From Flavobacteriales bacterium (GTDB lineage: Bacteria; Bacteroidota; Bacteroidia; Flavobacteriales_C; GCA-002722245), in the NCBI GenBank assembly GCA_947444925.1, contig CANFBW010000012.1, positions 4,281 to 68,280 on the forward strand: a DNA stretch of 64,000 nt. Direction: 5' to 3'. The position numbers and the translations under genes are program-made. The notes beneath the pieces were generated by a model, which was given only the letters and a program-made list of their open reading frames with translations, searched no databases and was not told the origin of the DNA. Positions 14,050 through 31,540 of the stretch are shown here, one piece after another; position 1 is the first letter of the stretch, and the number at the start of each line of letters is the position of its first letter.

Positions 14050-14053
14050 TAAA

Positions 14054-15547
14054 ATGGTAAAAAAAGGATTCATAAAAGTAAATTTTCTAGGAGGAATTAT
14101 TTCTCCGGGTTCTTTGAAAAAGATTTTGCTTGCCGCTCAAAAAGGCAGAATTTCTCACGTTAGTTTTGGCTTGCGTCAGCAACTGATCATGGAAACTGGG
14201 GTAGATAATTATTTTGATTTGAGAAATACTTTGCAAGATTTAAATCTTCCATTTGAAGAAAATGAAGTGCGCTTTCCCAATATTGTCAGCTCGTACCCAG
14301 CCGTCGAAGCATTTATAAATAAAACGTGGTTGAGTGAAGGTGTTTACAAAGATATTTTTGATTTGCTAGACTACATTCCAAAATTGAAAATTAACATCTC
14401 TGATAGTAATCAAAGTTTTACACCCTTGTACACCGGTAACATCAATTGGGTGGCTTCCAGTAGTATGCATTTTTGGCATGTTTTTGTGCGCTTTCCCAAA
14501 ACAAATGTTATTTACGAATGGCCAGAAACGGTGTACACGAATGATGTTGTGGCAGTGTCAAAAAAATTAGAAGAAATTATATTTGACAAAGCATCGTTGT
14601 TTGTGAAGAACGATGAAGCGAGTGGTGAATTGCTTTTTAAAATGTTGATGGAAACCGGGCATTACAATACCAAACCATCGGAGACAATGGTGCAGCCCTT
14701 GGAGTTTCGATTGCCGTATTACGAAGGATTCAATCGCTACAACAACAATTTCTTTTGGTTGGGAATATACCGTCGCGATGAATTGTTCGATATTGATTTC
14801 TTGTTGGAGATATGTGATTTGTGTTTGCATACAAAAGTTGGTCAGTTGTGTTCAACACCTTGGAAATCGCTGATGATTAAAGGTATTGAAGACAAGGATA
14901 GAGCGCTGTGGGATGTGATTTTAGCAAAGTATTTGATCAACGTTCGACATGCTGCAAATGAATTGAATTTTCAAGTGGAGGATTTTAGTGCCAATGCATT
15001 AAAGCTGAAACAATACATTGTGAAGCATTTTAGCAAAGATGACATTAGAACTTTTGCTATCTGCTTTGGAATTAAAATACAAACCAAGAGTGAGATTTTT
15101 TCAAGTATTTTGATTAAAAGAAAAGCCTTACTCAAACTTGGACAGCGCGAGTTTTTCTTCGTGTACGATATATTGTGCGCGCAAGATTTTAATCCGAATG
15201 AAAGAACAGGTTATGTGTTTCGGAAAAATATTTTAAAAATGTTTTTGCCTAGAGAATTGAAAAAAGCAGCGCAAGAGTTTTATCAATTTAAAGCCAAAAA
15301 TTCCGATGAAATAGTTTTTGCACCAAAAAAAGAAAAGGAAGTGGAGGAAACAATTGTTGTATTAGTGCATCAATGTCCTAATTGCTTATCAGTATATGAT
15401 GCAAGTGTTGGGGATGCTGAGAGCGACGTAGAAATAGGTGTTTCGTTTGCTTTGTTGCCAGTTAATTATTGCTGTGCTTTATGTGGAACAGAAAAAAACT
15501 ACTTTAAGGAAATATCAAAATCGAGTCTTGGAGTGCACATAAGTTAA
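14054..15547 (+). CDS. Uncharacterised protein with nitrite/sulfite reductase ferredoxin-like half-domains and a C-terminal rubredoxin domain
   Basis: N-terminal GGIISPGSL resembles the NirB GGEITPDKL segment; C-terminal CPNC...YD...GD...LP...CALC rubredoxin pattern. Confidence 0.7.
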   Translation: MVKKGFIKVNFLGGIISPGSLKKILLAAQKGRISHVSFGLRQQLIMETGVDNYFDLRNTLQDLNLPFEENEVRFPNIVSSYPAVEAFINKTWLSEGVYKDIFDLLDYIPKLKINISDSNQSFTPLYTGNINWVASSSMHFWHVFVRFPKTNVIYEWPETVYTNDVVAVSKKLEEIIFDKASLFVKNDEASGELLFKMLMETGHYNTKPSETMVQPLEFRLPYYEGFNRYNNNFFWLGIYRRDELFDIDFLLEICDLCLHTKVGQLCSTPWKSLMIKGIEDKDRALWDVILAKYLINVRHAANELNFQVEDFSANALKLKQYIVKHFSKDDIRTFAICFGIKIQTKSEIFSSILIKRKALLKLGQREFFFVYDILCAQDFNPNERTGYVFRKNILKMFLPRELKKAAQEFYQFKAKNSDEIVFAPKKEKEVEETIVVLVHQCPNCLSVYDASVGDAESDVEIGVSFALLPVNYCCALCGTEKNYFKEISKSSLGVHIS

Positions 15548-15584
15548 TTATGAATTGTAAATTACACTTCTATAAACCATTTGA

Positions 15585-16565
15585 ATGCTGATAGACAACC
15601 ATCATAGAGTTCACAATTATTTGCGAGTATCACTCACGAACAACTGTAACTTGAGATGCTTCTACTGCATGCCCAACGAAGAGCTGCCTTATACTCCCCC
15701 CGCTAGTTTGATGCAGGTGGATGAAATTGAGGTTATCGCCAAAACATTTGTTGATTTGGGAGTTACTAAAATTAGGCTGACTGGAGGCGAACCTCTGGTG
15801 CGCAAAGATGCGGCCGAAATTATAGAGCGTTTGTCAAAATATCCTGTGGAATTAACGATTACGACCAATGCTGTGCGTTTGCACGATTTTTTCGATTTGT
15901 TCATTAAGACAGGAATACGATCGCTAAATATTAGTTTAGATACCTTGCAGTCTCAAAGATTTAAGGACATCACAAAAAGAGATAATTTTCAATTGGTGTA
16001 TGATAATTTGCTGCGTGCGGTAGAATTGGGATTCTCTGTAAAAGTAAATGTAGTGACCATGAAAGGCGTCAATGACGACGAGATTTTGCAATTTGTGGAG
16101 CTTACCAAAAACCTGCGTTTGCATATCCGATTTATAGAATTCATGCCCTTTAGCGGCAATCAATGGAAGAATGAAAATGTAATAGGTTGGCAGGAAATAT
16201 TGAAAATTGTTGGTGATGCTTACGACATGGTTCCGCTTGTTCGCAACGCGCACGACACTGCAAAAAAATACAAAGTTATTGGGCACGAAGGTACATTTGC
16301 CGTGATCAGTACGATGACTTCTCCATTCTGCGGCGACTGCAATCGCATGCGTTTGACGGCCGATGGTAAAATGAAAAACTGTTTGTTTTCAAAAGGTGAA
16401 AACGATTTGCTTGCTGCTTTGCGTCGTGGTGATGATATTCAACCGTTGATTCTACAAAACATTAAAAGTAAAGCGGCTGAGCGTGGTGGTCAAATCACAA
16501 AAGATTTTAAAACAGCAGATGCTTTCACAATGGAAAATCGAAGCATGATAAATATAGGAGGATAG
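15585..16565 (+). CDS. moaA: GTP 3',8-cyclase (radical SAM)
   Basis: CNLRCFYC, TGGEP, C-terminal CGDCNR...CLF and terminal IGG. Confidence 0.95.
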   Translation: MLIDNHHRVHNYLRVSLTNNCNLRCFYCMPNEELPYTPPASLMQVDEIEVIAKTFVDLGVTKIRLTGGEPLVRKDAAEIIERLSKYPVELTITTNAVRLHDFFDLFIKTGIRSLNISLDTLQSQRFKDITKRDNFQLVYDNLLRAVELGFSVKVNVVTMKGVNDDEILQFVELTKNLRLHIRFIEFMPFSGNQWKNENVIGWQEILKIVGDAYDMVPLVRNAHDTAKKYKVIGHEGTFAVISTMTSPFCGDCNRMRLTADGKMKNCLFSKGENDLLAALRRGDDIQPLILQNIKSKAAERGGQITKDFKTADAFTMENRSMINIGG

Positions 16566-17750
16566 ATGATTGATGTAAAAACAGCCCGAGATTTAATTCA
16601 GCAGCATACACAAGCTTTACCAGCTGTTCGTATGGCATTGCATGAAAGTTTAGGCTTTGTTTTGGCTGAAGATGTTGTGGCGCCAATTCATACACCCCCT
16701 TTTGATCAATCGGCGATGGATGGTTATGCTTTTTGCTTTGCCGATTGGCAAGAGGGAAAAGCATTGCGTGTTGCTGGAATCGTTGCTGCTGGTGACAGCG
16801 GAGAAAGTGCCTTGGTGCATGGCACTGCATGCCGAATCTTCACAGGTGCTCCTGTTCCTTGTGGCGCCGATACTGTGGTGATGCAAGAAAAAGTAACCTT
16901 AAGCGAAAATGGTTTACTGATTTTAGATCAAGCAATTCAAAAGGCGGCCAATGTTCGTCCTTTGGGTTCTGAAACAAATAAAGGTGATGTTGCGATGCTT
17001 AGCCATACGCAATTGACACCTGCTGCAATTGGCTATTTGGCTAATTTAGGAATAACAGAACTTCTTGTTTTTGCACATCCACGCATCAGTATTATTATTA
17101 CTGGTAAAGAGCTGAGTCAGCCGGGAGATTTTTTGTTGCCAGGAAAAGTATATGAAAGTAATTCTTTTAGTCTTAGTGCGGCATTGCAGCAGCAACAACT
17201 TGATCGACCAACTATTTTATTTGTAGACGACGACAAAGACGCTACAAAATTGATCATTGAGAAAGCACTTATGGAATGCGATTTATTGCTGTTAACTGGA
17301 GGGATTTCTGTTGGTGATTACGACTATGTTGGCGAATCTTTGTTGGCGTGTGGTGTAGAACAAGTCTTTCATAAAATAAAACAAAAGCCTGGAAAACCTT
17401 TGTATTTTGGTAAAAAAGGAAATCTCCCTGTTTTTGCCTTGCCTGGAAATCCCGCTGCTGTGCTTACTTGCTTTTATGAATATGTATTGCCTTGCATCAA
17501 ATTGTTGCAAGGAAATACGAATGCTCCTTTGACTTTGTATTTGCCATTGTTAAAGGCCTACCACAAGAAAAAAGGACTCACTCATTTCTTAAAAGGAAGG
17601 GTGGAAGGTCGGGGCGTTTTGCCTCTGTCTGCGCAAGAGTCCTATAAATTGAATTCGTTTTCATTGGCCAACAGCATCATTGAACTGGATGAAGAAAAGG
17701 AAAATTTTATGGAAGGCGAATTGGTTAAAGTTAGTATGATATGGAATTAA
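16566..17750 (+). CDS. moeA: Molybdopterin molybdotransferase
   Basis: SAMDGYA, IFTGAPVP, TGGISVGDYD, KPGKP and LPGNP motifs. Confidence 0.93.
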   Translation: MIDVKTARDLIQQHTQALPAVRMALHESLGFVLAEDVVAPIHTPPFDQSAMDGYAFCFADWQEGKALRVAGIVAAGDSGESALVHGTACRIFTGAPVPCGADTVVMQEKVTLSENGLLILDQAIQKAANVRPLGSETNKGDVAMLSHTQLTPAAIGYLANLGITELLVFAHPRISIIITGKELSQPGDFLLPGKVYESNSFSLSAALQQQQLDRPTILFVDDDKDATKLIIEKALMECDLLLLTGGISVGDYDYVGESLLACGVEQVFHKIKQKPGKPLYFGKKGNLPVFALPGNPAAVLTCFYEYVLPCIKLLQGNTNAPLTLYLPLLKAYHKKKGLTHFLKGRVEGRGVLPLSAQESYKLNSFSLANSIIELDEEKENFMEGELVKVSMIWN

Positions 17751-18472
17751 ATATTTTGTTTTTTGTGTTGCTGTTGCTTGTCGCGTTTTTGTACTCCTCG
17801 GTGGGGCATGGCGGTGCCAGTGGCTATTTAGCATTAATGGCATTGTTTAGTTTTAGTCCCGACGTGATGAAGCCTACAGCGCTGCTGCTAAATGTTTTTG
17901 TGTCGGCCATTGCTTTTTTTCAATTTTACAGAGCCAAGCATTTCAATTGGAAAATGTTTGCTCCATTAGCGATCACCTCTATTCCTGCTGCTTTTATAGG
18001 TGGTTTGATGGTGATAGAGGGCAGCGTGTACAAGCAGATTTTAGGAGTGCTGCTTCTTTTGCCAGTGCTTCGTTTTGTTTTTTTTAGCAAGATCAACGTT
18101 GAATATAAAAAACCGTTTTCGGTAAAAGGATTGTTGCTTTTAGGAGGGAGTATTGGTTTGCTTTCAGGCATGATAGGAATTGGTGGAGGGATTATTTTGT
18201 CGCCAATATTGTTGCTGTTGCATTGGTCTGATCAAAAACAAACTGCGGCCATTAGTGCCTTGTTTATTTTTGTGAATTCGTTCGCAGGTTTAAGTGGCCA
18301 AATTGCAAAAGGAATTTCATTCAGCGCTGAAATGTATGCTTTTGTTGGTGTGGCGGTGATTGGTGGAGTGATGGGGGCTTATTTAGGCGCCATGCGTTTT
18401 GATCAAAAAATATTGATGCGTATTTTAGCGAGCGTGTTATTGATTGCATCTGTAAAATTGCTATTGGTATGA
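17741..18472 (+). CDS. TauE/SafE (TSUP) family membrane transporter
   Basis: Hydrophobic protein with duplicated glycine-rich motifs VGHGGASG and GIGGGIIL. Confidence 0.8.
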   Translation: MELNILFFVLLLLVAFLYSSVGHGGASGYLALMALFSFSPDVMKPTALLLNVFVSAIAFFQFYRAKHFNWKMFAPLAITSIPAAFIGGLMVIEGSVYKQILGVLLLLPVLRFVFFSKINVEYKKPFSVKGLLLLGGSIGLLSGMIGIGGGIILSPILLLLHWSDQKQTAAISALFIFVNSFAGLSGQIAKGISFSAEMYAFVGVAVIGGVMGAYLGAMRFDQKILMRILASVLLIASVKLLLV

Positions 18473-18708
18473 GTTCTTCAATTAATATAATTGCCTTCGG
18501 TAGAATTGCTGAAATCATAGGAACTTCATCTCGTAGTTTTCCACATGTAGCAACAACAAATGAGTTAAAGGAATTTTTAAATGTGAAATTTCCTGAATTG
18601 AAAAAAGTGAAATACGCTATTGCGCTAAATAAGAAATTAATTACTACAGATGCTGCTATTGAAGTATCTGCAAACATTGCTTTATTGCCACCGTTTTCGG
18701 GAGGATAG
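18469..18708 (+). CDS. moaD: Molybdopterin synthase sulfur carrier
   Basis: 79 aa ubiquitin-like protein ending LLPPFSGG. Confidence 0.9.
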   Translation: MSSSINIIAFGRIAEIIGTSSRSFPHVATTNELKEFLNVKFPELKKVKYAIALNKKLITTDAAIEVSANIALLPPFSGG

Positions 18709-18713
18709 CTATT

Positions 18714-19160
18714 ATGGAAAAAAAGAAAGTTAAAAATATTTTTGTTGAAGGACCTATCTCCGCCGCATTCATTGGGGAGTCGATAGCCAAGCACAGCAGC
18801 AATACGAATATTGGTGCGCACAGTATTTTTTTAGGTCAAGTGCGTAGTGATGTACTGGGTGAAAATGTGGTTCAATCTATTGAATACACCACTTATGCAG
18901 ATATGGCATTGGAGAAGATGGCGGAAATTCGCGAAGAGATTTTTGCCAAACATGCGCTTACTTGTATGCACATTCACCATAGTTTGGGAATTATTTCTGC
19001 AGGAGAAATTTGCCTGTTTGTATTTACTTCTTCAAAACGAAGAAGAGCTGCAGTGGACGCCTGCACGGAAGTAGTCGAAAGAATAAAAAATGAACTGCCT
19101 GTTTGGGGAAAAGAAATTTTTGCCGACAAAACCCACCAATGGAAAGAAAATACATTATGA
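18714..19160 (+). CDS. moaE: Molybdopterin synthase catalytic subunit
   Basis: FLGQVR, HSLG and PVWGKE motifs within a Moco gene cluster. Confidence 0.9.
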   Translation: MEKKKVKNIFVEGPISAAFIGESIAKHSSNTNIGAHSIFLGQVRSDVLGENVVQSIEYTTYADMALEKMAEIREEIFAKHALTCMHIHHSLGIISAGEICLFVFTSSKRRRAAVDACTEVVERIKNELPVWGKEIFADKTHQWKENTL

Positions 19161-20071
19161 ATGACATTACCTTTAAAATAAGTAGTTTAAGAAAAGCCAC
19201 TGCTACTGCCATTGTTAGGGTTTCAAAACCCGAAACCATTGAAGCGGTGAAAAACAAGATGGTTCCGAAGGGTGATGTTTTTGAATTTTCACGAGCTGCC
19301 GGTTTGCTGGGGATTAAAAAAACCAGTGATTTAATTCCCGACTGTCATCCGCTTCCCATTGAGTTTGCAAAAATTCAACACAGTGTGGATGGTCTGAATA
19401 TTGTCATTACAGTGGAAGTGCACACTATTTACAAAACGGGAGTAGAAGTGGAGGCGATGCACGGAGCATCAATAGTAGCGCTTACGATATATGATATGCT
19501 GAAGCCTATTGATAAAGGAGTTGAAATTCAAAACATTAAATTACTGCATAAAAAAGGAGGGAAATCGGATTTTGCCGATCGACCAATGAAGACTTTGAAA
19601 ACAGCAGTGATTGTTTGTTCCGACAGTATTTCGGCGGGGAGCAAGCAGGATTTCGCAGGAAAAGCAGTGATTGAGCGCTTGCAAAAAAACAATATCCATG
19701 GTGTTGCCTACGAAATCATTCCTGATGAAGAAATTGAAATTCAAAGTAAAGTGAAACAGCTGTGCGCGGCTAATTTTGATTTAATTTTATTTTGTGGTGG
19801 AACAGGTCTGTCGCCGCGCGATGTTACACCTGAAGCCATTAAGCCATTGATAGAACGCGATATTCCGGGGATTATGGAAGCAGCAAGATCTTATGGTCAG
19901 GATAGAACACCGTATGCGATGCTCTCTCGAGGGGTAGCTGGTTTTATTGGTGCTTCGTTGATTATCACGTTGCCAGGTTCCACCAAAGGTGCTGCAGAAA
20001 CGATGGATGCATTGTTTCCTGCAGTGTTGCATATTTTTAAAGTTGCTGAAGGTGCAAGACATGATCAATAA
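19157..20071 (+). CDS. moaCB: Bifunctional MoaC/MoaB(MogA) protein
   Basis: LIPDCHPL, TGVEVEAM and YDMLKPIDK (MoaC), then GGTGLSPRDVTPEA and LPGS (MoaB). The ATG at 19157 overlaps the moaE stop. Confidence 0.9.
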   Translation: MNDITFKISSLRKATATAIVRVSKPETIEAVKNKMVPKGDVFEFSRAAGLLGIKKTSDLIPDCHPLPIEFAKIQHSVDGLNIVITVEVHTIYKTGVEVEAMHGASIVALTIYDMLKPIDKGVEIQNIKLLHKKGGKSDFADRPMKTLKTAVIVCSDSISAGSKQDFAGKAVIERLQKNNIHGVAYEIIPDEEIEIQSKVKQLCAANFDLILFCGGTGLSPRDVTPEAIKPLIERDIPGIMEAARSYGQDRTPYAMLSRGVAGFIGASLIITLPGSTKGAAETMDALFPAVLHIFKVAEGARHDQ

Positions 20072-20651
20072 AACAAATATATTGGGTTTGGTGCTGTGTG
20101 GCGGGCAAAGCACGCGCATGGGAAAAGACAAAGGTATGCTCAAAAAAGGAGACCGCACTTGGGCTGAAATTGCTCGCGAAAAATTATTGGCCTTGAAGAT
20201 ACCTGCCGTTGTGTCGGTGAACGATGATCAAGTGGATGAATACGAAAAGGTGTTTTCTATTTCTGATTTGGTGATTGACGAAGAGTTTGAAGTAGGTGGA
20301 CCTTTGCTTGGTTTACTGAGTGCGCACCATCGCTTTCCCGACAAAGATATTTTTGTATTGGCATGTGATATCGTAGAAATGAAAACCGAAGTGATGGAGC
20401 ATTTAGTAGATCGATATGCAGCGCCAGCGACAGTTTTTAAAAATGAATATTTTGCTGAACCACTTTGCGGAATATATTCGCACGAGGCCTTGGCTATTGT
20501 TTTGGAAGCACTCCAAAATTACGAATTGAGAAGCCACAGCATGATGAATATTTTGAAGTTGATTTCGGCAAATACTATAGAAATCGATAAAAGTTGGTAC
20601 CAACTTTTCAATAATTTCAATACGCCCATAGAAGTAAAAGGAATAATATAG
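20061..20651 (+). CDS. mobA: Molybdenum cofactor guanylyltransferase
   Basis: LCGGQSTRMGKDK, GGPLLG, ACD and FNNFNTP motifs; ATG at 20061. Confidence 0.88.
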   Translation: MINKTNILGLVLCGGQSTRMGKDKGMLKKGDRTWAEIAREKLLALKIPAVVSVNDDQVDEYEKVFSISDLVIDEEFEVGGPLLGLLSAHHRFPDKDIFVLACDIVEMKTEVMEHLVDRYAAPATVFKNEYFAEPLCGIYSHEALAIVLEALQNYELRSHSMMNILKLISANTIEIDKSWYQLFNNFNTPIEVKGII

Positions 20652-20658
20652 TAAAGGA

Positions 20659-21363
20659 ATGAAAAAAGAAGCCGCAGGAAATTGTTCGACTTGTAGAAAT
20701 CAGTCGTGTTTAATCAAGAAAAATTACGGCGCCCACAACTATGATGTGGTGCAAGAAAATCACATTGTTATCGAATGCAAAAAAGGACAATCCTTTATCA
20801 TTGAAGGTGCTCCTGTTCACGGAATGTATTTTGTTTATTCTGGAAAGGCCAAAGTCACGAAATCTGGCTACCACGGCAAAGAACAAATTCTGCGCTTGGC
20901 TGCAGAGGGAGATATCATTGGTTTGCGCGGTTACAATCACCGCAAGGTATATCCAATTGCAGCAACTGCTTGGGAAGCAACTACCTTGTGCTACTTTCCA
21001 AATAAATTTTTCACGCAAGAGTTGCAAACGCACCATACTTTGGCTTATGAGTTGATGCTTTTTTACGCTGAGGAATTGGATAAAACAGAAGAACGCGTGA
21101 AGAAATTTGCGCAAATGACTGTTCGTGAAAAGGTAGTGGACGCATTGCTCAATATTTACGATCGTTTTGGACAAGATGAAGTAGGTTTGAAATTATTGCT
21201 TTCGCGCAGTGATCTTGCCAACCTTGCCGGTACCAACAGCGAACAGGTGATTAGGGTATTGATGACTTTGAAAAATGAAAAAAATATCAACTGTGAAGGC
21301 AAAAATATTTTTCTCGATAAAATTGACGTCTTGCGTAAAGAAGTGAGAGAGTATAATTATTAA
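20659..21363 (+). CDS. Crp/Fnr-family transcriptional regulator with N-terminal CxxCxxxxC (paralog 1)
   Basis: cNMP-binding fold (GKEQILRL..GDIIG), HTH LSRSDLANLAGTNSEQVIR, and CSTCRNQSC. Confidence 0.9.
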   Translation: MKKEAAGNCSTCRNQSCLIKKNYGAHNYDVVQENHIVIECKKGQSFIIEGAPVHGMYFVYSGKAKVTKSGYHGKEQILRLAAEGDIIGLRGYNHRKVYPIAATAWEATTLCYFPNKFFTQELQTHHTLAYELMLFYAEELDKTEERVKKFAQMTVREKVVDALLNIYDRFGQDEVGLKLLLSRSDLANLAGTNSEQVIRVLMTLKNEKNINCEGKNIFLDKIDVLRKEVREYNY

Positions 21364-21576
21364 ATGATTATCCGCAATTGTACCAGACTTGTGACAGAAG
21401 TGGCGCTAGATCCTTCAAAGACCGAAACTTCGTTTCTCCTCTTAATCTCAAATCTCAGGAAGACAATCATTCTCGAAAAACCTATGTGGAAAATCGTTTG
21501 CATTTGTCCTCCTGAGGTACTCCGAAGGATCTATCGCCCTAAACATAAATCTACTGGTACGATTCCGGATAATCAT
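21364..21576. repeat. 213-bp nested inverted-repeat element, copy 1
   Basis: IR1 ATGATTATCCG 21364-74/21566-76; IR2 TACCAG 21381-86/21554-59; IR3 GGCG(C/A)TAGATCCTTC 21402-16/21524-38; IR4 CTCAGGA 21454-60/21510-16. Confidence 0.92.
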
Positions 21577-21606
21577 ATTATTAATATTCTTCCTGTATTG
21601 ATGTAA
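21364..21606 (+). CDS. Putative small ORF (80 aa) running through the nested-IR element
   Basis: ATG directly follows the Crp/Fnr stop (TAAATG) and a homologous ORF lies in copy 2. Coding status is unproven. Confidence 0.35.
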   Translation: MIIRNCTRLVTEVALDPSKTETSFLLLISNLRKTIILEKPMWKIVCICPPEVLRRIYRPKHKSTGTIPDNHIINILPVLM

Positions 21607-21622
21607 TTGTGCTGATTGGTGT

Positions 21623-21662
21623 AAACAAAAAAACCTGTCGTTTTCGACAGGTTTTTTTGTTT
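21623..21662. terminator. Bidirectional intrinsic terminator
   Basis: AAACAAAAAAACCTGTCG-TTTT-CGACAGGTTTTTTTGTTT, a perfect 18-bp stem between convergent genes. Confidence 0.85.
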
Positions 21663-21675
21663 GTCACAACTTTTT

Positions 21676-24663
21676 TTATTCAATTTTCACGATGCGTATA
21701 TTGCTTTTTTGATCGAGGTATTGTGCTTCAACGAAATACATTCCCTGCGCTAAATTTTTTCCAAATACAATATTTTCATTGCTATTGAAATCATTGCCCT
21801 CAAAAACAAGAGCACCTTTGTAGTCGTAGATCTTGATCGCTACTTTTTCGTTTTGCGCATGCTCGAATCGCAAAATTGTTTCGTTGTAAAAAGGATTTGG
21901 AAAAGCGCTGGCCGGTGTGTTGCTATTTACTTCAATGATGCGGTCGTGATACAGCGCCGAACAATTATTGCCGATGCCTATCCAGTCTATGGTCACTGAG
22001 CCTGCAAAGGAGCTGTTGTACACCGCGTTTTTTCCAGTGATTGGATAGGTGTGGTAGCCGGGATTTAAATTAAATAGTAGTTTGCTAACATTACTGCTGT
22101 CCACTGATCCAGATGGATTGCCATTTGTGTTTTTAAAATGCTTGCTGAAATCTATGGTGAATGTTTGGTAGCTGGTTGTGAGTTCTAAATCAAGTGCTGT
22201 GTAATTGTCAGCAGCCATGTTGGCGCCATCTTGCATGGTCATACGCAATAATACATTAGACGAAGCTTTGGCTGTTATTTTTGCAATCGCGGCATACGAC
22301 GAACATGAAAAATCAATTGGCATGGCAGTGCTTCCGTCGTTTAGGCTATAGCTAAAGCTGTCCCATTCTTGATGGCCGTTAGCAGATACTTTCCATGAAT
22401 GATTGCTTTCTGTATGCGTAAATGCACTTGGCGTGGGAGACATCCATTTAACGCTGTTGTCGCTGAATTCGTCGCTAAACAAACACGAGGTAGGTTGAGG
22501 TCCAACGGTAACGTAGTTGATTTTTGTTTTGCTGCTGTTTGGACTGCTTCCGCCGATGGTAAGTGAAATGGTTTTACTGCCACTAGCACTGTATTGCACT
22601 TGCACAGGTCCAGCGCTTGTTGAGCTTGCTGGATTTGCACCTGCACCAAAATTCCATAGGTAGGTTTCGCCGCCCAATTTACCGGCGGTTAAATCGGTGA
22701 AGGTGATGGACGAGTTTAAACAAGTATTGATTTTGTTGGCTGAGAAATCAACTGTCAATGGGCAATTTCCACTCAGTGAAATTGCCAATGTTTTGGTGCT
22801 GCCTGAACACAATGCGCCATTGATTTCTGTAACAGTGATATCGCCACTATTAATAACAAAGTCGACTGTAATGGCTTTGCTTCCTTGCCCAGAAACAATG
22901 GTGGCACCCGCTGGAACCGTCCATGTAAAAGTAGATCCTGTTGAGCCTGTTACTGAATATGCTGCGCCTTTTAAGTTAAGGCATGTACTTGCTGGTCCAC
23001 TGATGGCTGAAGTGGCAGGCGTGCTACCTTGTGCTTTAAGATTATCAAAATAATATTGATGGTTGGTATAACTGTTTGGATTAAATAGCATTTGCATTTT
23101 GTCAACATCGCTGCCGTTTAAAGTCGGGTCAGGTGTTGCCAACCAACTAAAAGTAAGTGTTGTCCAGGTATTGCTTGCTCCAGTTTTTGCAGTGTATTGA
23201 CTGTGTATGCCGTTGGGATAGCCCTGTGGTGATTTTGCACTGTTGAGAAATTCAATGGTGATTGATGTTCCTGACGGCGCGCTACTGCGCACATCCATTG
23301 TGAATTTGCGCACGCCGGTTTTAAAATCGTCAGGATTTCCTACTTTAAATGAGGTGAAGGAAAGTACGTCGTATTGCACACCTGCATTGCGCGAATAGGA
23401 TGCACAGGTAGCAGAGGAATTGCTTCCGCCTGCACCTGGATTATTGCTATTGTTGCTGTATGAACCATCTGAATTGTTGCTGCCCAGATTACTGTTGTTT
23501 TCAAAATCACTGATGATTAGCGAGCAGGTATTGGTGATTGCTTTTACTGGGAATGAAACGTTTACTGGACTGCATGCATTGGCATTGCCATTGCCATCGG
23601 CATCAATGATCACCGATACATTTGCTGACAATGGAGCGTTGTATGCTACGCTGATTGTTTTGCTTCCTTGTCCGCTTAAAATACTTGCGCCTATTGGTAC
23701 CGACCAAGAATAAGTAGCGCTAGGTCCGGCATCGCTTGCGCTGTAGCTTTGTGTTTCGCCAACAAAAGAAATTTTTGGTCCTGTTACAGAAAGTGGGGAG
23801 CCGTTGCTGTACACGCGAACATAATCCACATACATTGAAACAGGGTAGTCGGCATTTACAGGCACAGCATTTCCGGTGTATGATCCACCGACAGCGAGGT
23901 TTAAAATCAAGAAGAAATCTTTTGCATCAAAAGGCCAGTCACTGGATTTCGCACCGGTGGAGCCTATGGTGGTAGGTGTGTGGGTTGCTGTGACAACACC
24001 ATCTACAGAGAAAATAATTTTTGCGGGTGACCAATCTACGGCATATACATGATAGTCGAGTGACCAGTCGGTGCCTGTATTGTAACTGTTGTAGTTGTAT
24101 TGGTGATTGCCACAAGGGGTACAGTAATAATGCACCGTTTGCGTTGCGTTTTTTGGTGTTTTGTTTTGGGTTTCCATAACATCGATTTCACCGCCGTAAG
24201 GCCAAGTGCCACTTGTAGGTAGCATCCAGAAGGCTGGCCAAATGGCAGAGGTGGATGGTACTTTGATGCGTGCTTCATAGCGCCCATATTTCCAAGATTG
24301 TTTGCCAACGGTTTCGATTTTACCCGATGTGAAGTCGCTGCCTGAATTGTTGTAATTCACTTGTCGACGTGCAGTGAGTACTAAATTGCCGCCAGTGACA
24401 TTTACATTGTTGGTGCTGTTGGTATAATATTGTCTTTCTCCGTTTCCAAATCCGCATCCCGATGAACCGTTGCAACCATTGCCTATTACATAGGACCAGT
24501 TGTTGGTGTTGAGTACTGATCCGTCAAATTCATCTGACCATACAAGGTTGTTGCATTGTGAAAATGATTGATGAGAAAGGAGTGTTAGCAAAGTAAAAGA
24601 AAATGTTTTGCACCATTTTTTTGTACTTTCTAAGTTGATTTTGTTGAGTACTTGTTCTTTCAT
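21676..24663 (-). CDS. GH16 laminarinase-like beta-1,3-glucanase with PKD/CBM-like modules and a T9SS type A C-terminal domain
   Basis: LVWSDEF, WPAFWMLP and GEIDVME catalytic motif; C-terminal AFPNPF...GMYFV...RIVKIE. Confidence 0.88.
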   Translation of the reverse strand: MKEQVLNKINLESTKKWCKTFSFTLLTLLSHQSFSQCNNLVWSDEFDGSVLNTNNWSYVIGNGCNGSSGCGFGNGERQYYTNSTNNVNVTGGNLVLTARRQVNYNNSGSDFTSGKIETVGKQSWKYGRYEARIKVPSTSAIWPAFWMLPTSGTWPYGGEIDVMETQNKTPKNATQTVHYYCTPCGNHQYNYNSYNTGTDWSLDYHVYAVDWSPAKIIFSVDGVVTATHTPTTIGSTGAKSSDWPFDAKDFFLILNLAVGGSYTGNAVPVNADYPVSMYVDYVRVYSNGSPLSVTGPKISFVGETQSYSASDAGPSATYSWSVPIGASILSGQGSKTISVAYNAPLSANVSVIIDADGNGNANACSPVNVSFPVKAITNTCSLIISDFENNSNLGSNNSDGSYSNNSNNPGAGGSNSSATCASYSRNAGVQYDVLSFTSFKVGNPDDFKTGVRKFTMDVRSSAPSGTSITIEFLNSAKSPQGYPNGIHSQYTAKTGASNTWTTLTFSWLATPDPTLNGSDVDKMQMLFNPNSYTNHQYYFDNLKAQGSTPATSAISGPASTCLNLKGAAYSVTGSTGSTFTWTVPAGATIVSGQGSKAITVDFVINSGDITVTEINGALCSGSTKTLAISLSGNCPLTVDFSANKINTCLNSSITFTDLTAGKLGGETYLWNFGAGANPASSTSAGPVQVQYSASGSKTISLTIGGSSPNSSKTKINYVTVGPQPTSCLFSDEFSDNSVKWMSPTPSAFTHTESNHSWKVSANGHQEWDSFSYSLNDGSTAMPIDFSCSSYAAIAKITAKASSNVLLRMTMQDGANMAADNYTALDLELTTSYQTFTIDFSKHFKNTNGNPSGSVDSSNVSKLLFNLNPGYHTYPITGKNAVYNSSFAGSVTIDWIGIGNNCSALYHDRIIEVNSNTPASAFPNPFYNETILRFEHAQNEKVAIKIYDYKGALVFEGNDFNSNENIVFGKNLAQGMYFVEAQYLDQKSNIRIVKIE

Positions 24664-25104
24664 AGCAGGGGTATTGGTTTGGGGTTTTATTTTGGGTTTG
24701 TGAATTTAAATTGCGTTTTGATCTCAATAGTGTGAACGTATAAAATTCTTGTTTTCAATGTGTTGGCGTAATTGGAAAAAATCGTACACGCGCTTGCGTA
24801 GCACTTTAATTATTTGCACAATAGAATTTGTATCTGATATTTTCATATCAATTTGCTTTAGTGCCATCAAACATGGCGGTTAATAAAAGTATTTGTGAAT
24901 TGTGTTTTTGCGGGAAATCAATGTATGTGTAAAGCGAAGTTTTGCTGACTTTACATTTTGATGTTCCTGAGTCGAGGACTTAAGGTGGGAATTATTTTTG
25001 AATAGGCAAAATAAAAACGCACTGAAAGCAGTGCGTTTTATTTTTTTGATGTATGCTTTTATTTGATAGATTTTTTTTTGCAAACAGCTGCTGTAGAAAT
25101 GCAG

Positions 25105-25692
25105 TTATTTCGTTTCTTCTTTTTTAGTGGTTTCTGTACTGAATTTGTAAACGACGCTAAATGCTAAGCCACTTGTTGAGAAACCAGAGCTGATACCTGC
25201 TAAAGTTTTACCTGAAAGAGCTCCCACAGATGCACTGATGCTTGGTATTGCCTCAAGGTTAATGTACATTTTAGGTGAAAGGTCATATTGCAAACCCAGC
25301 ACATAGCCGAGTCCGAGCATAAAGGTTGCATTGCTGTTTAAAGAGTAGGCCATCAATGAAAAAGCAGGTTCGAAACCGTGGATGAATTGCAGATTGGGAG
25401 CAATATTTTTTCTTTTTTCTGTACCAATGGCAAATTGAGCGTTGAACTGACCCTGTGTAGAGCCTCCTAATGTTGATAATCCAATATTCGCAGCGCCCAA
25501 GCGGTATCTTCTGAATTTATTTTCGGCTTTTTGTGTTTTGTACACGAAGTCAAATGAACTAAGGTCAGAGAAGCGCACACCTACTTCTCTGTTTTGAACT
25601 TGTGCATTGCTGTTTGTTGCCATAAATAAAGAAAGTGCTAAGCTCCATTTTGTCATTGCACGAAGTCTTGTAAAAAATGTTTTTGATTTCAT
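25105..25692 (-). CDS. Exported hypothetical protein, probably a small outer-membrane beta-barrel
   Basis: Signal peptide ending NAQ, amphipathic beta-strands, and a C-terminal FSVVYKF strand. Confidence 0.55.
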   Translation of the reverse strand: MKSKTFFTRLRAMTKWSLALSLFMATNSNAQVQNREVGVRFSDLSSFDFVYKTQKAENKFRRYRLGAANIGLSTLGGSTQGQFNAQFAIGTEKRKNIAPNLQFIHGFEPAFSLMAYSLNSNATFMLGLGYVLGLQYDLSPKMYINLEAIPSISASVGALSGKTLAGISSGFSTSGLAFSVVYKFSTETTKKEETK

Positions 25693-25988
25693 TTGTTCGT
25701 TTCAATTTAAGTTTAGGTTTATTGATGCTTTGTGCACCAAATTTTTTCAACTGCTGTTTGTAGCAAAGAGCTTGTTATTATGGTTTGTAGCTAATAAATA
25801 GACTAAATTATTTAAGGATAATATCTGCCATTTGGCAGTTAAATTCACTTCAAATGCAGTCTTTTATTTTGTGAATTAACATTCTGTATACTGCATCCTG
25901 TCATTGAATTCGCGTGCCTCTCCTCATAACTTTGTTTCATCAAATCGATCGAAAGTAAAGTACCTATTATAAACTAAAACCGAAGAAG

Positions 25989-27377
25989 ATGAAAAAAAGA
26001 TTACTGATTTTAGCCACGGCTTGGTTGAGCATTGTTTCAACTGCGACAGTGCAAGCGCAATTGACAGCTGGTGCACAAATTCGAACAAGAGGTGAATACC
26101 GCAACGGACAAGGGACGTTGTTGAGTAAAAATGCAAACATTTATCCCGATTATTTTATTTCGCAACGAACACGAATGTTTGCTGGATACACAGGATATCG
26201 TTTTAAAACTTACGCTTCGATTCAAGATGTGAGGGTTTGGGGACAAGATTCATCAACCATAAACAGAACCACATCGGGATTGCTGAATGGCATTTTAGTA
26301 AATGAGGCTTGGGGTGAGATCATGTTAAATGACACTGCGCCGAAAAGTAAAATTGAAAATTTGTCACTAAAAATTGGTCGACAAGAAATTGCTTACGATG
26401 ACCAAAAAATTCTAGGATCGTTGGATTGGTTGCAGCAAGCGCGTAGGCATGATGCAGCGGTGCTGAAATTCTCAAACAAAGGATGGACCGCTGATTTGGG
26501 GGCGGCCTACAATCAAAATGCAGAAAGCGGCAAGGATATTTCCTACAATGGAAGTCCCTCTTCATACGCTGCCGGCACAAATGCCATTGGCACCATGTAC
26601 AAATCAATGCAGTATTTGTATTTAGGTAAAAAGTTTTTCTTTGGTGATGCCTCTTTACTTTGTTTTAAAGATGACTTTAGTAAATATACCAAACCTAGTG
26701 CGGCGTCTCCAATAAAAAATTACGGTAATGCCGTATGGAGCAGAATCACCACAGGTGCATATATCAACGCTACTATTAAAAGAAGATTGTTGGTGACAGC
26801 TTCGTATTATCACCAAATGGGACAAGACAAAGATGGTGTGACAATGGATGCAAACTTGGTATCGATCACCACTTCCATGCAACTTGGAAGAAAATTGTTT
26901 GTTGGACCAGGAGTGGATTATTTATCTGGAAACGACGGCACAAAAGCACTTACGGCAAGTTCTACCAATCAACGTTTTGACCCCTTGTATGGCACGCCTC
27001 ACAAATTTTGGGGAACGATGGATTATTTCTACGTAGCTAGCGGTTCAGGCAAACAAGGTTTGGTAGATATGTTTTTTAAAATCAAATACAATCTTAAAGA
27101 CAATCTGACTTTGTTGCTCGATGTGCATGGATTTGAAGTGGCCAATACTTTGTCGAATGGTAAAGGAGGAGCACAAAATCCTTACTTGGGAACCGAAGTT
27201 GATTTCACACTAAAATACAATATGACAAAAATCATCAATATAGAAGCAGGTTACTCGTACATGGCGGCAACAAATTCAATGGCGTCAGCGCAAGTTAAAA
27301 ATGTTGCAAACCCTAATTTGAGTGCGTCTTGGGCCTATGTTATGGTGTCAATCAAACCTAATTTTTTAGCGAAATAA
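25989..27377 (+). CDS. Alginate-export (AlgE-like) family outer-membrane porin
   Basis: RTRGEYRNG, SQRTR, QDVRVWG, GRQEIAYDD, W.QQARRHDA and YGTPHKFWG motifs; first gene of the nitrate transport operon. Confidence 0.82.
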   Translation: MKKRLLILATAWLSIVSTATVQAQLTAGAQIRTRGEYRNGQGTLLSKNANIYPDYFISQRTRMFAGYTGYRFKTYASIQDVRVWGQDSSTINRTTSGLLNGILVNEAWGEIMLNDTAPKSKIENLSLKIGRQEIAYDDQKILGSLDWLQQARRHDAAVLKFSNKGWTADLGAAYNQNAESGKDISYNGSPSSYAAGTNAIGTMYKSMQYLYLGKKFFFGDASLLCFKDDFSKYTKPSAASPIKNYGNAVWSRITTGAYINATIKRRLLVTASYYHQMGQDKDGVTMDANLVSITTSMQLGRKLFVGPGVDYLSGNDGTKALTASSTNQRFDPLYGTPHKFWGTMDYFYVASGSGKQGLVDMFFKIKYNLKDNLTLLLDVHGFEVANTLSNGKGGAQNPYLGTEVDFTLKYNMTKIINIEAGYSYMAATNSMASAQVKNVANPNLSASWAYVMVSIKPNFLAK

Positions 27378-27404
27378 TAGATCAGCTCATCAACAATTAA
27401 TCTT

Positions 27405-28634
27405 ATGAAAATGAAAAAAATAGTAAATAAAATAAAAGCAAAAATCACCACCAAGGCGTGGGCGTTAATGCTGCTAACAACAAGTGCTTTATCTGTAGAA
27501 GCATCCGAACCTGTTAAGTTGGGATTTATTCCGCTCACCGACTGTTCGCCAATTGTGATGGCAAAAGAATTGGGCCTGTTTAAAAAATATGGTGTTGAAG
27601 TGATTGTTACGAAAGAAGCTTCGTGGGCCAATGTGCGTGATAAAATATTAACTGGTGAATTGGATGGCGCACACTGTTTGTTCTCTATGCCTTTCTCAGT
27701 GTACACAGGTGTTGGAGGTAAAGCCGGATCTGAAATGAAAATTGCAATGATGCTCAATGTAAACGGTCAGGCAATTACTTTGTCAAATGACTTTTGCGGC
27801 AAAGTAGGATTTCGTCAAATGAACAAAGTAGCACCGGTGGTAGCTGCTAAATTGAAAGCTGAAAGAGAAGTGACTTTTGCGATGACTTTTCCTGGTGGAA
27901 CGCATGATTTGTGGTTGCGCAACTGGATGGCGATTGCAGGTGTGAGCCAAAAAACATCAAAAATTATCACCATTCCACCACCGCAAATGGTAGCGAATAT
28001 GAAAGTTGGAAACATGGATGGATATTGCGTTGGTGAACCATGGGGAGGTGTAGCGGTGAAGCAAGGAATTGGATTTACACAAATTGCTTCTCAAGACATT
28101 TGGAAAGATCATCCTGAAAAAGCACTCGTGGTAAACAAAGACTTTAGCGTGCAACGCAGAGAAGATTTGAAGAAAGTAATGATGGCTATTTTAGAGGCAT
28201 GTATTTGGTTAGACAATCCTGCCAATCGTAAAAAAGCAGCGGCCATCATAGGTAAAGCGCCTTATGTTAACGCTCCTGCCGATGTTATTGAATCTCGTTT
28301 GATGGGTAATTATGATTTGGGATGCAGTCAAGGGATTCAGGTTTATGCAAAAGATTACATGTTGTTTCACAAAGGCGGCATGGTGAATTTTCCTCGTAAA
28401 TCATATGGCATTTGGGCGATGGCACAATACGTAAGATTCGGAATGCTAGATGAAATTCCGAATTACAAAGCGATAGCAGATAAATTGATTTTACAGGACT
28501 TGTACAAAGAGGTTGCTGCAGCAATGAAGGTGAAAGTACCAGACGACGATATGAAGCCTTTCGCACTCACTTTGGATAAAACGGTTTTTGATCCACTGAA
28601 TCCAGCTGCGTATTTGAAAGTAGCTACTAAATAG
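27405..28634 (+). CDS. nrtA: CmpA/NrtA-family nitrate ABC transporter substrate-binding protein
   Basis: LGFIPLTDC, SWANVRD, TFPGGTH, PPPQMVAN, CVGEPW and IWKDHPEK motifs. Confidence 0.88.
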   Translation: MKMKKIVNKIKAKITTKAWALMLLTTSALSVEASEPVKLGFIPLTDCSPIVMAKELGLFKKYGVEVIVTKEASWANVRDKILTGELDGAHCLFSMPFSVYTGVGGKAGSEMKIAMMLNVNGQAITLSNDFCGKVGFRQMNKVAPVVAAKLKAEREVTFAMTFPGGTHDLWLRNWMAIAGVSQKTSKIITIPPPQMVANMKVGNMDGYCVGEPWGGVAVKQGIGFTQIASQDIWKDHPEKALVVNKDFSVQRREDLKKVMMAILEACIWLDNPANRKKAAAIIGKAPYVNAPADVIESRLMGNYDLGCSQGIQVYAKDYMLFHKGGMVNFPRKSYGIWAMAQYVRFGMLDEIPNYKAIADKLILQDLYKEVAAAMKVKVPDDDMKPFALTLDKTVFDPLNPAAYLKVATK

Positions 28635-28738
28635 AAAAAAAATAATGCTTACATAAAAGGAGGGTGGTGCAAAAGGATGGAGGTGGCGCCACCACTTTTT
28701 ACAAAAGAAAAATAGTCAACACATTAAATTTAGATGAA

Positions 28739-29620
28739 ATGTCAGAAACTGAAACATTAACAATGACGGAAAGCGAAAACGTAGAAAGTGCAATTCCATT
28801 AAAAGAAGAAACACAAAAAGAGAATAAGATGAAATATTATTTATCTATAGTTATTGATAAAAGTAAATCGCTCTTCTTTGCCTGTATTGGTTTGTTGCTC
28901 TTTGGCGGGTTTTGGAGTTTTATGAGTAGCTATACTGAAAATGAATTGCCTGGACCAGTTGCCACATTAACAGTGATGCAAGAAATGTTGAGTGATCCGT
29001 TTTACGATTATGGACCTAACGACAAAGGCATTGGGTTGTTGTTGGTGGCCTCTGTAGGTACCGTTCTTTCAGGGTTTTTAATCGGATCGGTAGTGGCGAT
29101 CCCCTTGGGTATACTGATGGGTGCAAGCAAAACATTCAAACAGATTTTATATCCCTTGGTACAATTGCTAAAACCAGTTTCTCCTTTGGCATGGTTTCCA
29201 ATTGGACTCGTAGTTTTTAAAGATACGGGCATGGCGACAATTTTTATCGTTTTTATTACTTCGCTATGGTCAACAGTAATCAATACTTCTTTTGGTATTG
29301 GTTCTATTCCGCAAGATCACAAAAACGTAGCGAAGGCTTTTGGTTTTTCAAAATGGCGCTATCTCACTAAAATATTAATTCCGTTTAGTTTACCGCACAT
29401 CATCACAGGTTTGCGCTTGAGTATTGGCGTAGCGTGGCTGGTGATTGTGGCAGGTGAAATGCTTTCAGGTGCATCTGGTATAGGTTTCTTTGTTTGGGAC
29501 AGTTGGAATGCGTTGAGTTTAGAAAAGGTGATTTCTGCCATTCTGATTATCGGTATAGTGGGTTTGCTTTTTGACAAGCTCTTTACATTTATCGAAAACA
29601 AAGTTTCTTACAAAGCCTAA
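28739..29620 (+). CDS. nrtB: Nitrate ABC transporter permease
   Basis: PFYDYGPNDKGIG, KPVSPLAWFP and TGLRLSIGVAWLVIVAGEM. The start at 28739 is uncertain. Confidence 0.88.
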   Translation: MSETETLTMTESENVESAIPLKEETQKENKMKYYLSIVIDKSKSLFFACIGLLLFGGFWSFMSSYTENELPGPVATLTVMQEMLSDPFYDYGPNDKGIGLLLVASVGTVLSGFLIGSVVAIPLGILMGASKTFKQILYPLVQLLKPVSPLAWFPIGLVVFKDTGMATIFIVFITSLWSTVINTSFGIGSIPQDHKNVAKAFGFSKWRYLTKILIPFSLPHIITGLRLSIGVAWLVIVAGEMLSGASGIGFFVWDSWNALSLEKVISAILIIGIVGLLFDKLFTFIENKVSYKA

Positions 29621-29641
29621 AAAAACATTTAAAAAATTATT

Positions 29642-30448: not shown

Positions 30449-30452
30449 AGAG

Positions 30453-30635
30453 ATGAAGCAATTTGTAATCATTGGTGCTGCTTGTATGACTTTGGCATCG
30501 GCAATTCAATTGAAAGCAGAATTTTCTGCGCCCAGCGCTATTGAAACTGGAACAGAAATGAGAAAGGGAAAGCGATTGGCAAAGTCAAAGTTGCGATCTC
30601 TTCTTTTTTTAAGTACTTCAAAAGGCACTAAATAA
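30453..30635 (+). CDS. Small ORF (60 aa) with a signal-peptide-like start; possible porin N-terminal remnant
   Basis: Fills the gap between nrtD and Crp/Fnr-2 and begins MKQFVIIGAACMTLASA. Confidence 0.3.
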   Translation: MKQFVIIGAACMTLASAIQLKAEFSAPSAIETGTEMRKGKRLAKSKLRSLLFLSTSKGTK

Positions 30636-30641
30636 ATTACT

Positions 30642-31331: not shown

Positions 31332-31540
31332 TTATCCGGAATCGTACCAGTAGATTCATGTATAGGGCGATAGATCCTTCAAAGACCGAAACTTCGTTTC
31401 TCCTCTTAATATCAAATCTCAGGAGGACAAATGCGAACAATTTTCTACATAGGTTTTTCGAGAATGATTGTCTTCCTGAGGTACTCCGAAGGATCTATCG
31501 CCACTTCTGTCACAAGACTGGTATAATTACGGATAATCAT
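31328..31540. repeat. 213-bp nested inverted-repeat element, copy 2
   Basis: IR1 31328-38/31530-40; IR2 31345-50/31518-23; IR3 GGCGATAGATCCTTC 31366-80/31488-502; IR4 31418-24/31474-80. Confidence 0.92.

Follow-up and report, generated by a model that had tools for sequence, protein, structure and literature searches.

Two 213 bp elements, at positions 21364-21576 (copy 1) and 31328-31540 (copy 2) and both described here on the forward strand, lie in a 64,000 nt stretch of DNA, referred to below as the window, from contig CANFBW010000012.1 (C12) of a Flavobacteriales bacterium. The genome (G000) is a draft metagenome-assembled genome (MAG) of 3.24 Mb in 123 contigs with a G+C content of 41%, and was compared with those of related, sister species (G001-G005, G007 and G008). 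Both elements are probably, at odds of roughly two in three, members of a family of mosaic palindromic repeats resembling MITEs (miniature transposable elements with inverted repeats), the interiors of which have been reshuffled by templated copying rather than by a programmed switch. A reading of the window made from its sequence alone had treated them as a two-copy feature, representing either a multi-layer invertible switch or a long hairpin that repeatedly swaps strands; they are instead part of a dispersed family of about 22 full-length copies. No evidence was seen that the orientations of their layers constitute a regulated switch.

Both copies consist of segments of 11-6-6-15-15-37-7-49-7-7-15-15-6-6-11 nt, named in order T, a6, S2, X, S3, M (37 nt), S4, C (49 nt), S4', u7 (7 nt), S3', Y, S2', b6 and T'. 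In copy 1, the left half comprises T (21364-21374), a6 (21375-21380), S2 (21381-21386), X (21387-21401) and S3 (21402-21416); the core comprises M (21417-21453), S4 (21454-21460), C (21461-21509), S4' (21510-21516) and u7 (21517-21523); and the right half comprises S3' (21524-21538), Y (21539-21553), S2' (21554-21559), b6 (21560-21565) and T' (21566-21576). In copy 2, where the primes of Y', C' and X' mark the exchanged or inverted spacers, the corresponding left half is T (31328-31338), a6 (31339-31344), S2 (31345-31350), Y' (31351-31365) and S3 (31366-31380), the core M (31381-31417), S4 (31418-31424), C' (31425-31473), S4' (31474-31480) and u7 (31481-31487), and the right half S3' (31488-31502), X' (31503-31517), S2' (31518-31523), b6 (31524-31529) and T' (31530-31540). 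Inverted-repeat pairs located independently in each copy fall at 21402-21416 with 21524-21538 and 21454-21466 with 21504-21516 in copy 1, and at 31366-31380 with 31488-31502 and 31418-31430 with 31468-31480 in copy 2. The stems are common to both copies. Of the intervening sequences, each 15 nt spacer has traded places with the other as its reverse complement (14/15 and 13/15 positions identical), the 49 nt centre is reverse-complemented (46/49), and the 37 nt and 7 nt spacers are in direct orientation (36/37 and 7/7). Once the layers are normalised, ten substitutions separate the copies, the same count as in the sequence-only reading, whose description of the nested layout, the lengths and the swapped, flipped and direct spacers is likewise borne out by this segment-by-segment comparison. 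Each unit, consisting of two inverted conserved units and a spacer, is predicted to fold into a long nested hairpin, at -38.7 kcal/mol for the DNA of copy 1 (z = -7.0) and -83.8 kcal/mol for the RNA of copy 2 (z = -8.6), with none of 200 shuffled sequences folding as well in either case.

The M core is found at 59 sites in G000 with up to seven mismatches, and a 29-mer of M at 53 sites with up to two mismatches, against none for the reversed-pattern control. Pairs of T and T' spaced 60-4000 bp apart number 22, and 19 of these delimit units of 183-214 bp, eleven being exactly 213 bp long; three near-complete copies and the degenerate copy C91_462 were added by hand. Full-length copies number about 22. 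The 11 bp terminal inverted repeats (TIR), ATGATTATCCG and CGGATAATCAT, are present on both ends of the 19 units and often extend through NAATYGTACCAG. Target site duplications (TSDs) of 8 bp are perfect around nine of 21 copies and match at seven or more positions around 12, with five more copies reaching this level after a shift of 1 nt; none of 420 mismatched pairings of left and right flanks attained 8/8. In the window, copy 1 is bordered by ATTATTAA at 21356-21363, which holds the stop codon of the upstream gene encoding a Crp/Fnr-type regulator, and again at 21577-21584, and copy 2 by TTTAATTT at 31320-31327 and at 31541-31548, the latter being followed by the original TAA of the gene into whose end this copy is inserted.

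Empty sites for both insertions were identified in sister species. At the orthologous gene end in G007 (locus L040, ...AAATTTAATTTTTAA...), a single TTTAATTT is followed by TTAA, and sites of the copy 1 type in G007 and G001 (loci L046 and L044) carry a single ATTATTAG / ATTATTGA at the orthologous gene end, the Crp/Fnr orthologues bearing these empty sites being only 66-74% identical to the window genes. Sequences flanking the elements are 88% A+T. Among the 59 M cores, 48 had open reading frames (ORFs) of at least 150 aa on both sides, placing 21 between convergent genes, 14 in tandem contexts in the sense direction, nine in tandem contexts in antisense and four between divergent genes, with the other 11 at contig edges; insertion thus favours positions downstream of genes. 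The 213 bp unit is therefore MITE-like, being small, non-coding and present in multiple copies, with TIR, TSDs of a fixed 8 bp and empty sites in relatives.

With M drawn from left to right, the 22 aligned copies occupy four states. State s1, X M C Y, includes copy 1 of the window among its nine copies, and state s3, Y' M C' X', includes copy 2 among its ten; s2, Y' M C X', is represented by a single copy (C108), and s4, X M C' Y, by two copies of a divergent subfamily, in addition to a 207 bp relative that was left out of the trees described below. A symmetric 183 bp copy without M (C21_52180) was also left out of the trees. When an s3 copy is reverse-complemented, it has the same outer bubble X...Y, the same C and the same A...C bits flanking C as an s1 copy, such that the sole structural difference between these states is that M and u7 are on exchanged arms. 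Since a MITE can insert in either orientation, reversal of the whole unit costs nothing, and the two window copies hence differ in one layer, not three; copy 2 resembles a copy 1 inverted layer by layer because M occupies the other arm.

The same contrast between arms extends through the genome. Of the 39 paired units in G000, 34 combine an arm bearing M with an opposite arm bearing u7, five lack M and none has M on both arms. Flips of the central loop are rare, being limited to the one s2 and two s4 copies. C108 is best understood as an ordinary hairpin-loop flip, in which GACAA and TTGTC bound an inverted core of C and the bits on either side remain oriented with the outer layers; in the s4 subfamily, the centre is inverted relative to X and Y. 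In a second shell family (C89 compared with C116), the loop is likewise reverse-complemented relative to M, and the copy C23_30944 has ATTGGTCC on both arms.

Direct evidence of change at a fixed locus came from two metagenome contigs (L037 and L038), found by searching with the junction between the left flank of copy 1 and T. These align to positions 10883-25004 of the window with 92-96% identity, and share with copy 1 its insertion site, its ATTATTAA TSD, its X, C and Y, and the S3 variant specific to it. Their unit is 183 bp long and lacks M, having the arrangement S3-GGAATAC-S4 ... S4'-GTATTCC-S3'; relative to the window, M is replaced by GGAATAC and GTACTCC by GTATTCC, and only three of the 176 other shared positions in the unit differ. 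As this M-less allele occupies the same insertion, a gain or loss of M must have happened in place after these populations, around 5% diverged, split. The GGAATAC/GTATTCC pair is perfectly complementary and has no copies in G000, which is what copying between the two arms would be expected to yield. The simplest history would be a single substitution along with arm-to-arm copying that erased M, the direction of change being that favoured by parsimony.

The shell of the element and its arm state are not inherited together. Of two trees, the first was built for 22 copies from all columns with the layers normalised, and the second from the shell alone, the 125 columns of the outer layers and C, with S3, M, S4 and u7 removed. 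On the all-column tree, s1 and s3 need seven changes each, numbers that 294 and 220 of 500 shuffled labelings were as low as, and a single s1 clade is rejected by the approximately unbiased (AU) test (p = 0.0057). Similarly, s1 and s3 each need seven changes on the shell-only tree, no better than shuffled labels, and monophyly of s1 is again rejected (AU p = 0.0067). For instance, copy 1 of the window (s1) is four substitutions from C73_1890 (s3) and 13 from the nearest s1 copy, and C25_14590 (s1) is also nested among s3 copies. No site in C divides s1 from s3, the centres of C72 (s3) and C14_40557 (s1) being identical, and hence the pattern is not explained by conversion of M along with C in one tract.

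The modules of the interior are also distributed separately. The u7 palindrome motif and M number, respectively, 72 and two in G008, 48 and three in G003, 38 and zero in G002, and 36 and two in G005, compared with zero and ten in G004 and zero and seven in G007. In G008, G003, G002 and G005 most occurrences of the u7 motif are in minus/plus pairs separated by 55-90 nt, which are symmetric palindromes without M, and the stems flanking M in sister species differ completely from those in G000. M and the u7 palindrome are thus separate in the sister species and combined only in G000. Searches of relatives found M in none of 13 other genomes of the order and in seven of 401 sampled genomes of the class, all of genus g1. 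Elsewhere, M has one exact copy, which matches the 29-mer exactly, in a Flavobacterium chuncheonense record (L036:5236-5272) in a different palindromic context, which could represent horizontal transfer or a chance survivor; apart from this record, M is confined to the window's genus among the genomes searched.

From these observations we infer a template-switch mechanism and a two-step route between states. The interior is a mosaic of a symmetric palindrome, S3-u7'-S4-loop-S4'-u7-S3', and M, which in G000 takes the place of the 7 nt u7' on one arm only. The most likely process would be templated copying, guided by short homology in the 15 nt S3 and 7-13 nt S4 repeats, in the course of replication or repair. 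Copying from arm to arm would erase M and generate symmetric 183 bp forms, of which C21_52180 and the L037/L038 allele are observed examples, and a second unit bearing M would, by its homology in S3 and S4, serve as the template for reinstalling M on either of the equivalent arms, such that the 9:10 split between s1 and s3 and the lack of phylogenetic signal would follow. Occasional template switches may additionally invert the central loop, as observed in C108 and the s4 subfamily. One study describes template switching between short inverted repeats as homogenising arms and inverting loops (PMC8794818), and template switching at such repeats is also reported in another (PMC8604942). The earlier suggestion of replication template switching, in which a long hairpin retains its stems as its strands are exchanged, is close to this proposal.

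A number of points weigh against this proposal. The passage from s1 to s3 needs two steps, with no single template-switch or conversion event sufficing, and the expected intermediates are scarce, there being one M-less unit among the 19 bounded by T and one s2 copy among the 22 aligned. The absence of units with M on both arms (0/39) indicates either that a long perfect palindrome is unstable or that the process is non-random with regard to arms. In the trees, the branches placing s1 copies within s3 groups have moderate support (83-93% bootstrap), and the one internal branch that is strongly supported is compatible with a single origin. No transposase gene was found beside any T end in G000, nor was an autonomous transposase with matching ends, such that mobility is argued from the TSDs and empty sites. 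Self-BLAST of G000 revealed no repeat longer than 300 bp resembling an insertion sequence (IS), only overlaps of contig ends, and profile searches of the genome for PF01609, PF12762, PF00872 and PF01610 (DDE_Tnp_1, IS1595, IS256-type and ISL3) gave no matches. Of two rve matches, that on C73 reads as IS3-like, with an HTH-type orfA followed by an rve orfB, and that on C114, known from its ORF list only, was negative by blastn to the C73 locus. The autonomous IS may be lacking from the draft MAG. Finally, the high conservation of M and S4'-u7, and an excess of G:T mismatches on the M strand, both detailed below, hint at a strand-specific function beyond neutral reshuffling.

The positions of the window copies relative to genes bear on such a function. 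Copy 1 directly follows the stop codon of a gene on the forward strand encoding a Crp/Fnr-type regulator (20659-21363; cNMP_binding, 9.7e-15; HTH_Crp_2, 2.9e-8), and copy 2 overlaps the end of a paralogous gene, also on the forward strand (30642-31331), whose present TGA stop lies within the first four bases of the element (ATGA). The end of the latter gene, now ...K F N L*, has a stop codon derived from the element, the reconstructed empty site encoding ...K F N F*. A terminator-like hairpin at 31689-31717 on the forward strand means that copy 2 sits between a stop codon and a terminator-like site; a hairpin followed by a T-run is visible by eye at around 21627-21659, after copy 1, where the terminator scanner made no call. 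Matches to sigma-70-type promoters were at chance level, promoter motifs of the Bacteroidota having been looked for by eye only. The position of both copies in the 3' regions of Crp/Fnr regulator genes of a nitrate-uptake cluster makes effects on mRNA stability plausible, judging from the gene layout.

Genes between 17741 and 31331 encode a TauE-like exporter, MoaC/MoCF and MobA-like molybdopterin proteins, the first Crp/Fnr regulator, a GH16 protein sorted by the type IX secretion system (T9SS), a porin-like protein, the permease and ATPase of an ABC system that resembles one for nitrate uptake and has an NMT1_2-type binding protein, and the second Crp/Fnr paralogue; each of the two regulator genes has an element copy at its stop codon. 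Frame 1 of the M strand, read from the element's own ATG (window 21364-21606 and 31328-31552), is free of stops in 15 of 19 units, which include all four states, and the four units with stops all bear indels; other frames usually have one to eight stops. Frame-1 variants creating a stop were expected around 3.7 times and observed zero times (P ~0.02). A small protein was nonetheless rejected, with variants spread evenly over codon positions (23/26/21 and 11/13/11) and through-going ORFs lacking any Pfam match.

Conservation is concentrated in particular parts of the unit. Nucleotide diversity (pi) among twelve 213 bp copies is 0.000 in S4', 0.024 in u7, 0.06 in T and T' and 0.070 in M, compared with 0.10-0.25 elsewhere. 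The least variable part is S4'-u7-S3' (TCCTGAG GTACTCC GAAGG...; 21510-21538 and 31474-31502), with pi of 0.000-0.077, its pairing partners S4 and S3 being more variable (0.139 and 0.107). M, which is on the 5' arm of copy 1 on the forward strand, is composed of a covarying 5 bp mini-hairpin (GAAAC-TTC-GTTTC) and a single-stranded tail. In an alignment of 29 distinct M sequences from nine genomes and the Flavobacterium record, the mini-hairpin is kept through three kinds of double change (GAAAC/GTTTC, GAAAG/CTTTC, GAAGC/GCTTC and GGAAG/CTTCC), with 96.6% of cells paired and three of the five pairs changing on both sides. The covariation score of 0.160 exceeds the 0.072 of shuffled alignments, none of 500 shuffles reaching it, and all slid controls score lower; the tail, TCCTCTTAAT.TCAAAT, is nearly invariant.

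These features suggest a possible, if doubtful, alternative in which S3-M-S4 ... S4'-u7-S3' is a functional single-stranded structure, either an RNA in 3' untranslated regions acting as a stabiliser, processing site or ribozyme, or a single-stranded DNA (ssDNA) hairpin recognised by a Y1/HUH enzyme. Selection would then keep the orientation of M and leave the shell free, an arrangement compatible with the reshuffling proposed above. Besides the covariation and the near-invariance of the tail and of S4'-u7, this would fit the location of both window copies, which have M in the sense direction and are preceded by a stop codon and followed by a terminator-like hairpin, and the orientations of the 13 T-bounded copies within 60 nt of a gene 3' end, counted from the table as ten sense and three antisense. 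In 44 units, the mismatches of the S3 and S4 stems, read on the M strand, comprise 52 G:T and 27 A:C, an excess drawn from related copies whose events are not independent. The bias in orientation is not significant across tandem contexts as a whole (14 sense, nine antisense), and template switching in DNA also yields covariation and arm symmetry, as set out in PMC8794818. Three Y1_Tnp genes are present in G000, but S3/u7 palindromes flank none of these loci and none of 17 in five relatives.

Searches of Rfam gave no family match: there were none at the gathering score in the 64 kb window, only two unrelated weak matches at E <=10 to copy 1, and only generic hairpin microRNA models at E <=1 among eight loci of relatives. 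The hammerhead and other ribozyme cores were tried and found not to fit, as judged by eye against consensus sequences.

An equally tentative possibility is that M is a tiny guest module, specific to one strand, whose targets are the loops or arms of hairpin repeats of unrelated sequence, making it either a new kind of minimal hairpin-targeting mobile element or a new structured RNA or ssDNA motif that uses hairpins as scaffolds. Its hosts would be the u7 palindrome, a Repetitive Extragenic Palindromic (REP) sequence associated with a REP-associated tyrosine transposase (RAYT), and other stems in sister species; it would always occupy one arm, moving or being lost in place, and would have expanded in G000, where it has about 53 copies compared with 0-10 in sister species. 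M is found in the loop of the REP-like hairpin R59 (...ACCACTCCCAAAGCCTTCGGCTT...) at three loci in G000 (C31:10322, C59:13260 and C92:4647). R59 without M, in inverted copies, flanks a RAYT-like Y1 transposase of 188-190 aa in G000, G002 and G008, with such loci at L083:1385-2140, L085:1053-1840 and around 13900-14760 of G000 contig C59. M is genus-restricted, conserved, structured and always single-armed.

Other arrangements of these repeats were observed in the genus. Compound arrays of units, either head-to-head or in tandem, occur in G000 outside the window at C24:4300-4700, C34:6075-6290, C9:1823-2062, C27:39751-40282 and C10:26400-26662, and one unit among them has a central loop enlarged by tandem repetition of around 30 bp. 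A short GAAGTTAGCGAC-like motif recurs near M or downstream of Crp/Fnr orthologues in sister species (L006:1540-1580, L044:2330-2360 and L046:2190-2230), which suggests that there are further mosaic repeat modules in the genus.

Somewhat less probable again are true nested inversions, in which inversion at S3 and then at S4, through template switching at hairpins or cruciforms, was historically fixed and then spread by transposition, copy 2 being descended from an ancestor resembling copy 1. All four relative states do exist, and the C108 flip between GACAA and TTGTC and the inverted centres of s4 are changes of the expected type, loop inversion by template switching being documented in PMC8794818. 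However, the states that a single inversion must produce are rare (one s2 and two divergent s4 copies), whereas the double-inversion relation is common (nine s1 and ten s3 copies), and neither the shell tree nor the sequence of the centre sorts by state. Furthermore, the only direct comparison at a fixed locus, that of copy 1 with L037 and L038, shows the presence or absence of M and not an inversion.

The sequence-only reading had also raised the possibility of a programmed concentric shufflon, with a recombinase acting in trans on up to eight states per locus to regulate nitrate and Crp/Fnr genes. Nested inverted repeats do flank each layer, several states exist among the copies, and both window copies adjoin Crp/Fnr genes in a nitrate-uptake and molybdopterin neighbourhood. 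This explanation is nevertheless very improbable, and the claim of a multi-layer invertible switch is unsupported: around 22 copies bounded by TSDs are scattered at unrelated genes, the exchange of M and u7 is the commonest difference between them, and the polymorphism at the copy 1 locus is one of M presence. The location of elements downstream of genes or between convergent ones (21 convergent compared with four divergent) is unexpected for a promoter switch. The earlier statement that the window encodes no recombinase or transposase holds for the eight Pfam families searched, none of which has a match on C12. In G000 as a whole there is no match to the serine recombinase family (Resolvase), and the tyrosine recombinases (Phage_integrase) comprise two clear genes of around 300 aa on C16 and C30 (160.6 and 140.8 bits) along with a weak match on C52, which at 22.4 bits falls short of the Pfam cut-off; the stretches with mapped elements include none of these three.

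Contigs from 22 metagenomic runs were available, and those of four runs (X1, X2, X3 and X5) were compared with the window. They break inside the elements, where depth is around 20-fold that of the flanks, and none spans a whole element; the joints listed match other copies of the family, with no strand-changing joint among them, and no coexisting orientations were seen, rare ones being invisible in contigs. Those that reach unique flank (X2, 20945-21405; X1, 21547-31355; X3, 30708-31355 and 31500-31966) have the outer arms as in the assembly, such that contigs from three independent studies agree with its outer-arm junctions. That the states are chimeric repeat paths in the MAG is hardly credible, despite the 123-contig draft and the breaks and ~20-fold pile-up in the Logan contigs, given that two independent metagenome assemblies have an identical full-length sequence of the copy 1 locus and the same shell arrangement, that ordinary reads should be able to span from unique flank to the centre of a unit of ~213 bp, and that 8 bp TSDs and a consistent architecture over 19 units are unlike misjoins.

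The family had been thought not to be a described element, and no counterpart was found in the searches made, although it belongs to a structurally known kind, that of MITE-like mosaic palindromic repeats also resembling Bacterial Interspersed Mosaic Elements (BIMEs). Collections of phage, plasmid and viral contigs contained no match, and the family is not described in the literature searched for MITE or REP repeats of Flavobacterium-type bacteria and for M strings, supplementary files being outside this search. In the RepRanger paper (PMC12306157), Flavobacterium appears only in the genome table.

Like other bacterial MITEs, such as the Correia/NEMIS elements of Neisseria, the 213 bp unit is small, non-coding and multi-copy, has TIR and TSDs of fixed length, targets AT-rich intergenic sequence near gene ends and has corresponding empty sites. 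It differs in that no cognate autonomous IS was found, in that its interior is a three-layer imperfect palindrome with heterologous bubbles that vary between copies, and in that M and the u7 palindrome exist apart from the TIR shell in sister species. The mosaic of palindromic units and extra motifs recalls the BIMEs of Escherichia coli, and the extragenic hairpin doublets enriched downstream of genes are likewise shared with REP doublets forming hairpins (REPINs) and the REP-RAYT system, as is the presence in G000 of a RAYT-like gene flanked by its own inverted repeats, a repeat that hosts M in some of its copies. Transposition by Y1/HUH enzymes leaves no 8 bp TSD, unlike insertion of the 213 bp unit, and none of the Y1_Tnp loci examined, three in G000 and 17 in relatives, is flanked by S3/u7 palindromes. 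REPINs are predicted to fold in ssDNA or mRNA, according to PMC3116915.

Invertible switches, including Hin/Gin, fim, the invertons of Bacteroides and plasmid shufflons, similarly have segments bounded by short inverted repeats that occur in both orientations. In the present family, by contrast, no adjacent or dedicated recombinase was found, the repeats are concentric rather than serial, and the copies are mobile, bounded by TSDs and downstream of genes. If the proposed history is correct, recombinase-free reshuffling can mimic programmed multi-state switches, which calls for caution with inverton-finding pipelines, as these would flag such loci. In the flip and flop forms of parvoviruses, the whole interior of the outer stem inverts with each round of hairpin-primed replication. 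There too an imperfect palindrome has two forms, in which the unpaired parts are inverted and the stems kept, but in the 213 bp unit neither the inner loop nor the outer bubble is tied to changes of the middle bubble, and nothing in the family suggests rolling-hairpin replication.

The closest parallel for the changes themselves is with template-switch mutations, which PMC8794818 describes as including length-preserving inversions of loops and multi-base compensatory changes on both arms. Candidate examples in this family are the loop-core flip of C108, the GGAATAC/GTATTCC pair in L038 and the ATTGGTCC arms of C23_30944. The dominant change in the family, relocation of the asymmetric 37 nt/7 nt internal bubble between arms, differs from these in being beyond a single event and in recurring across the family. 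If the reading of these repeats as a MITE-like mosaic reshuffled by templated copying is correct, the family would be a natural record of the evolution of imperfect palindromes, in which modules are moved, erased and reinstalled without a recombinase, and its approximately 22 dated copies, along with the orthologous M-less allele, would form a compact system within the Bacteroidota for testing template switching and arm conversion.

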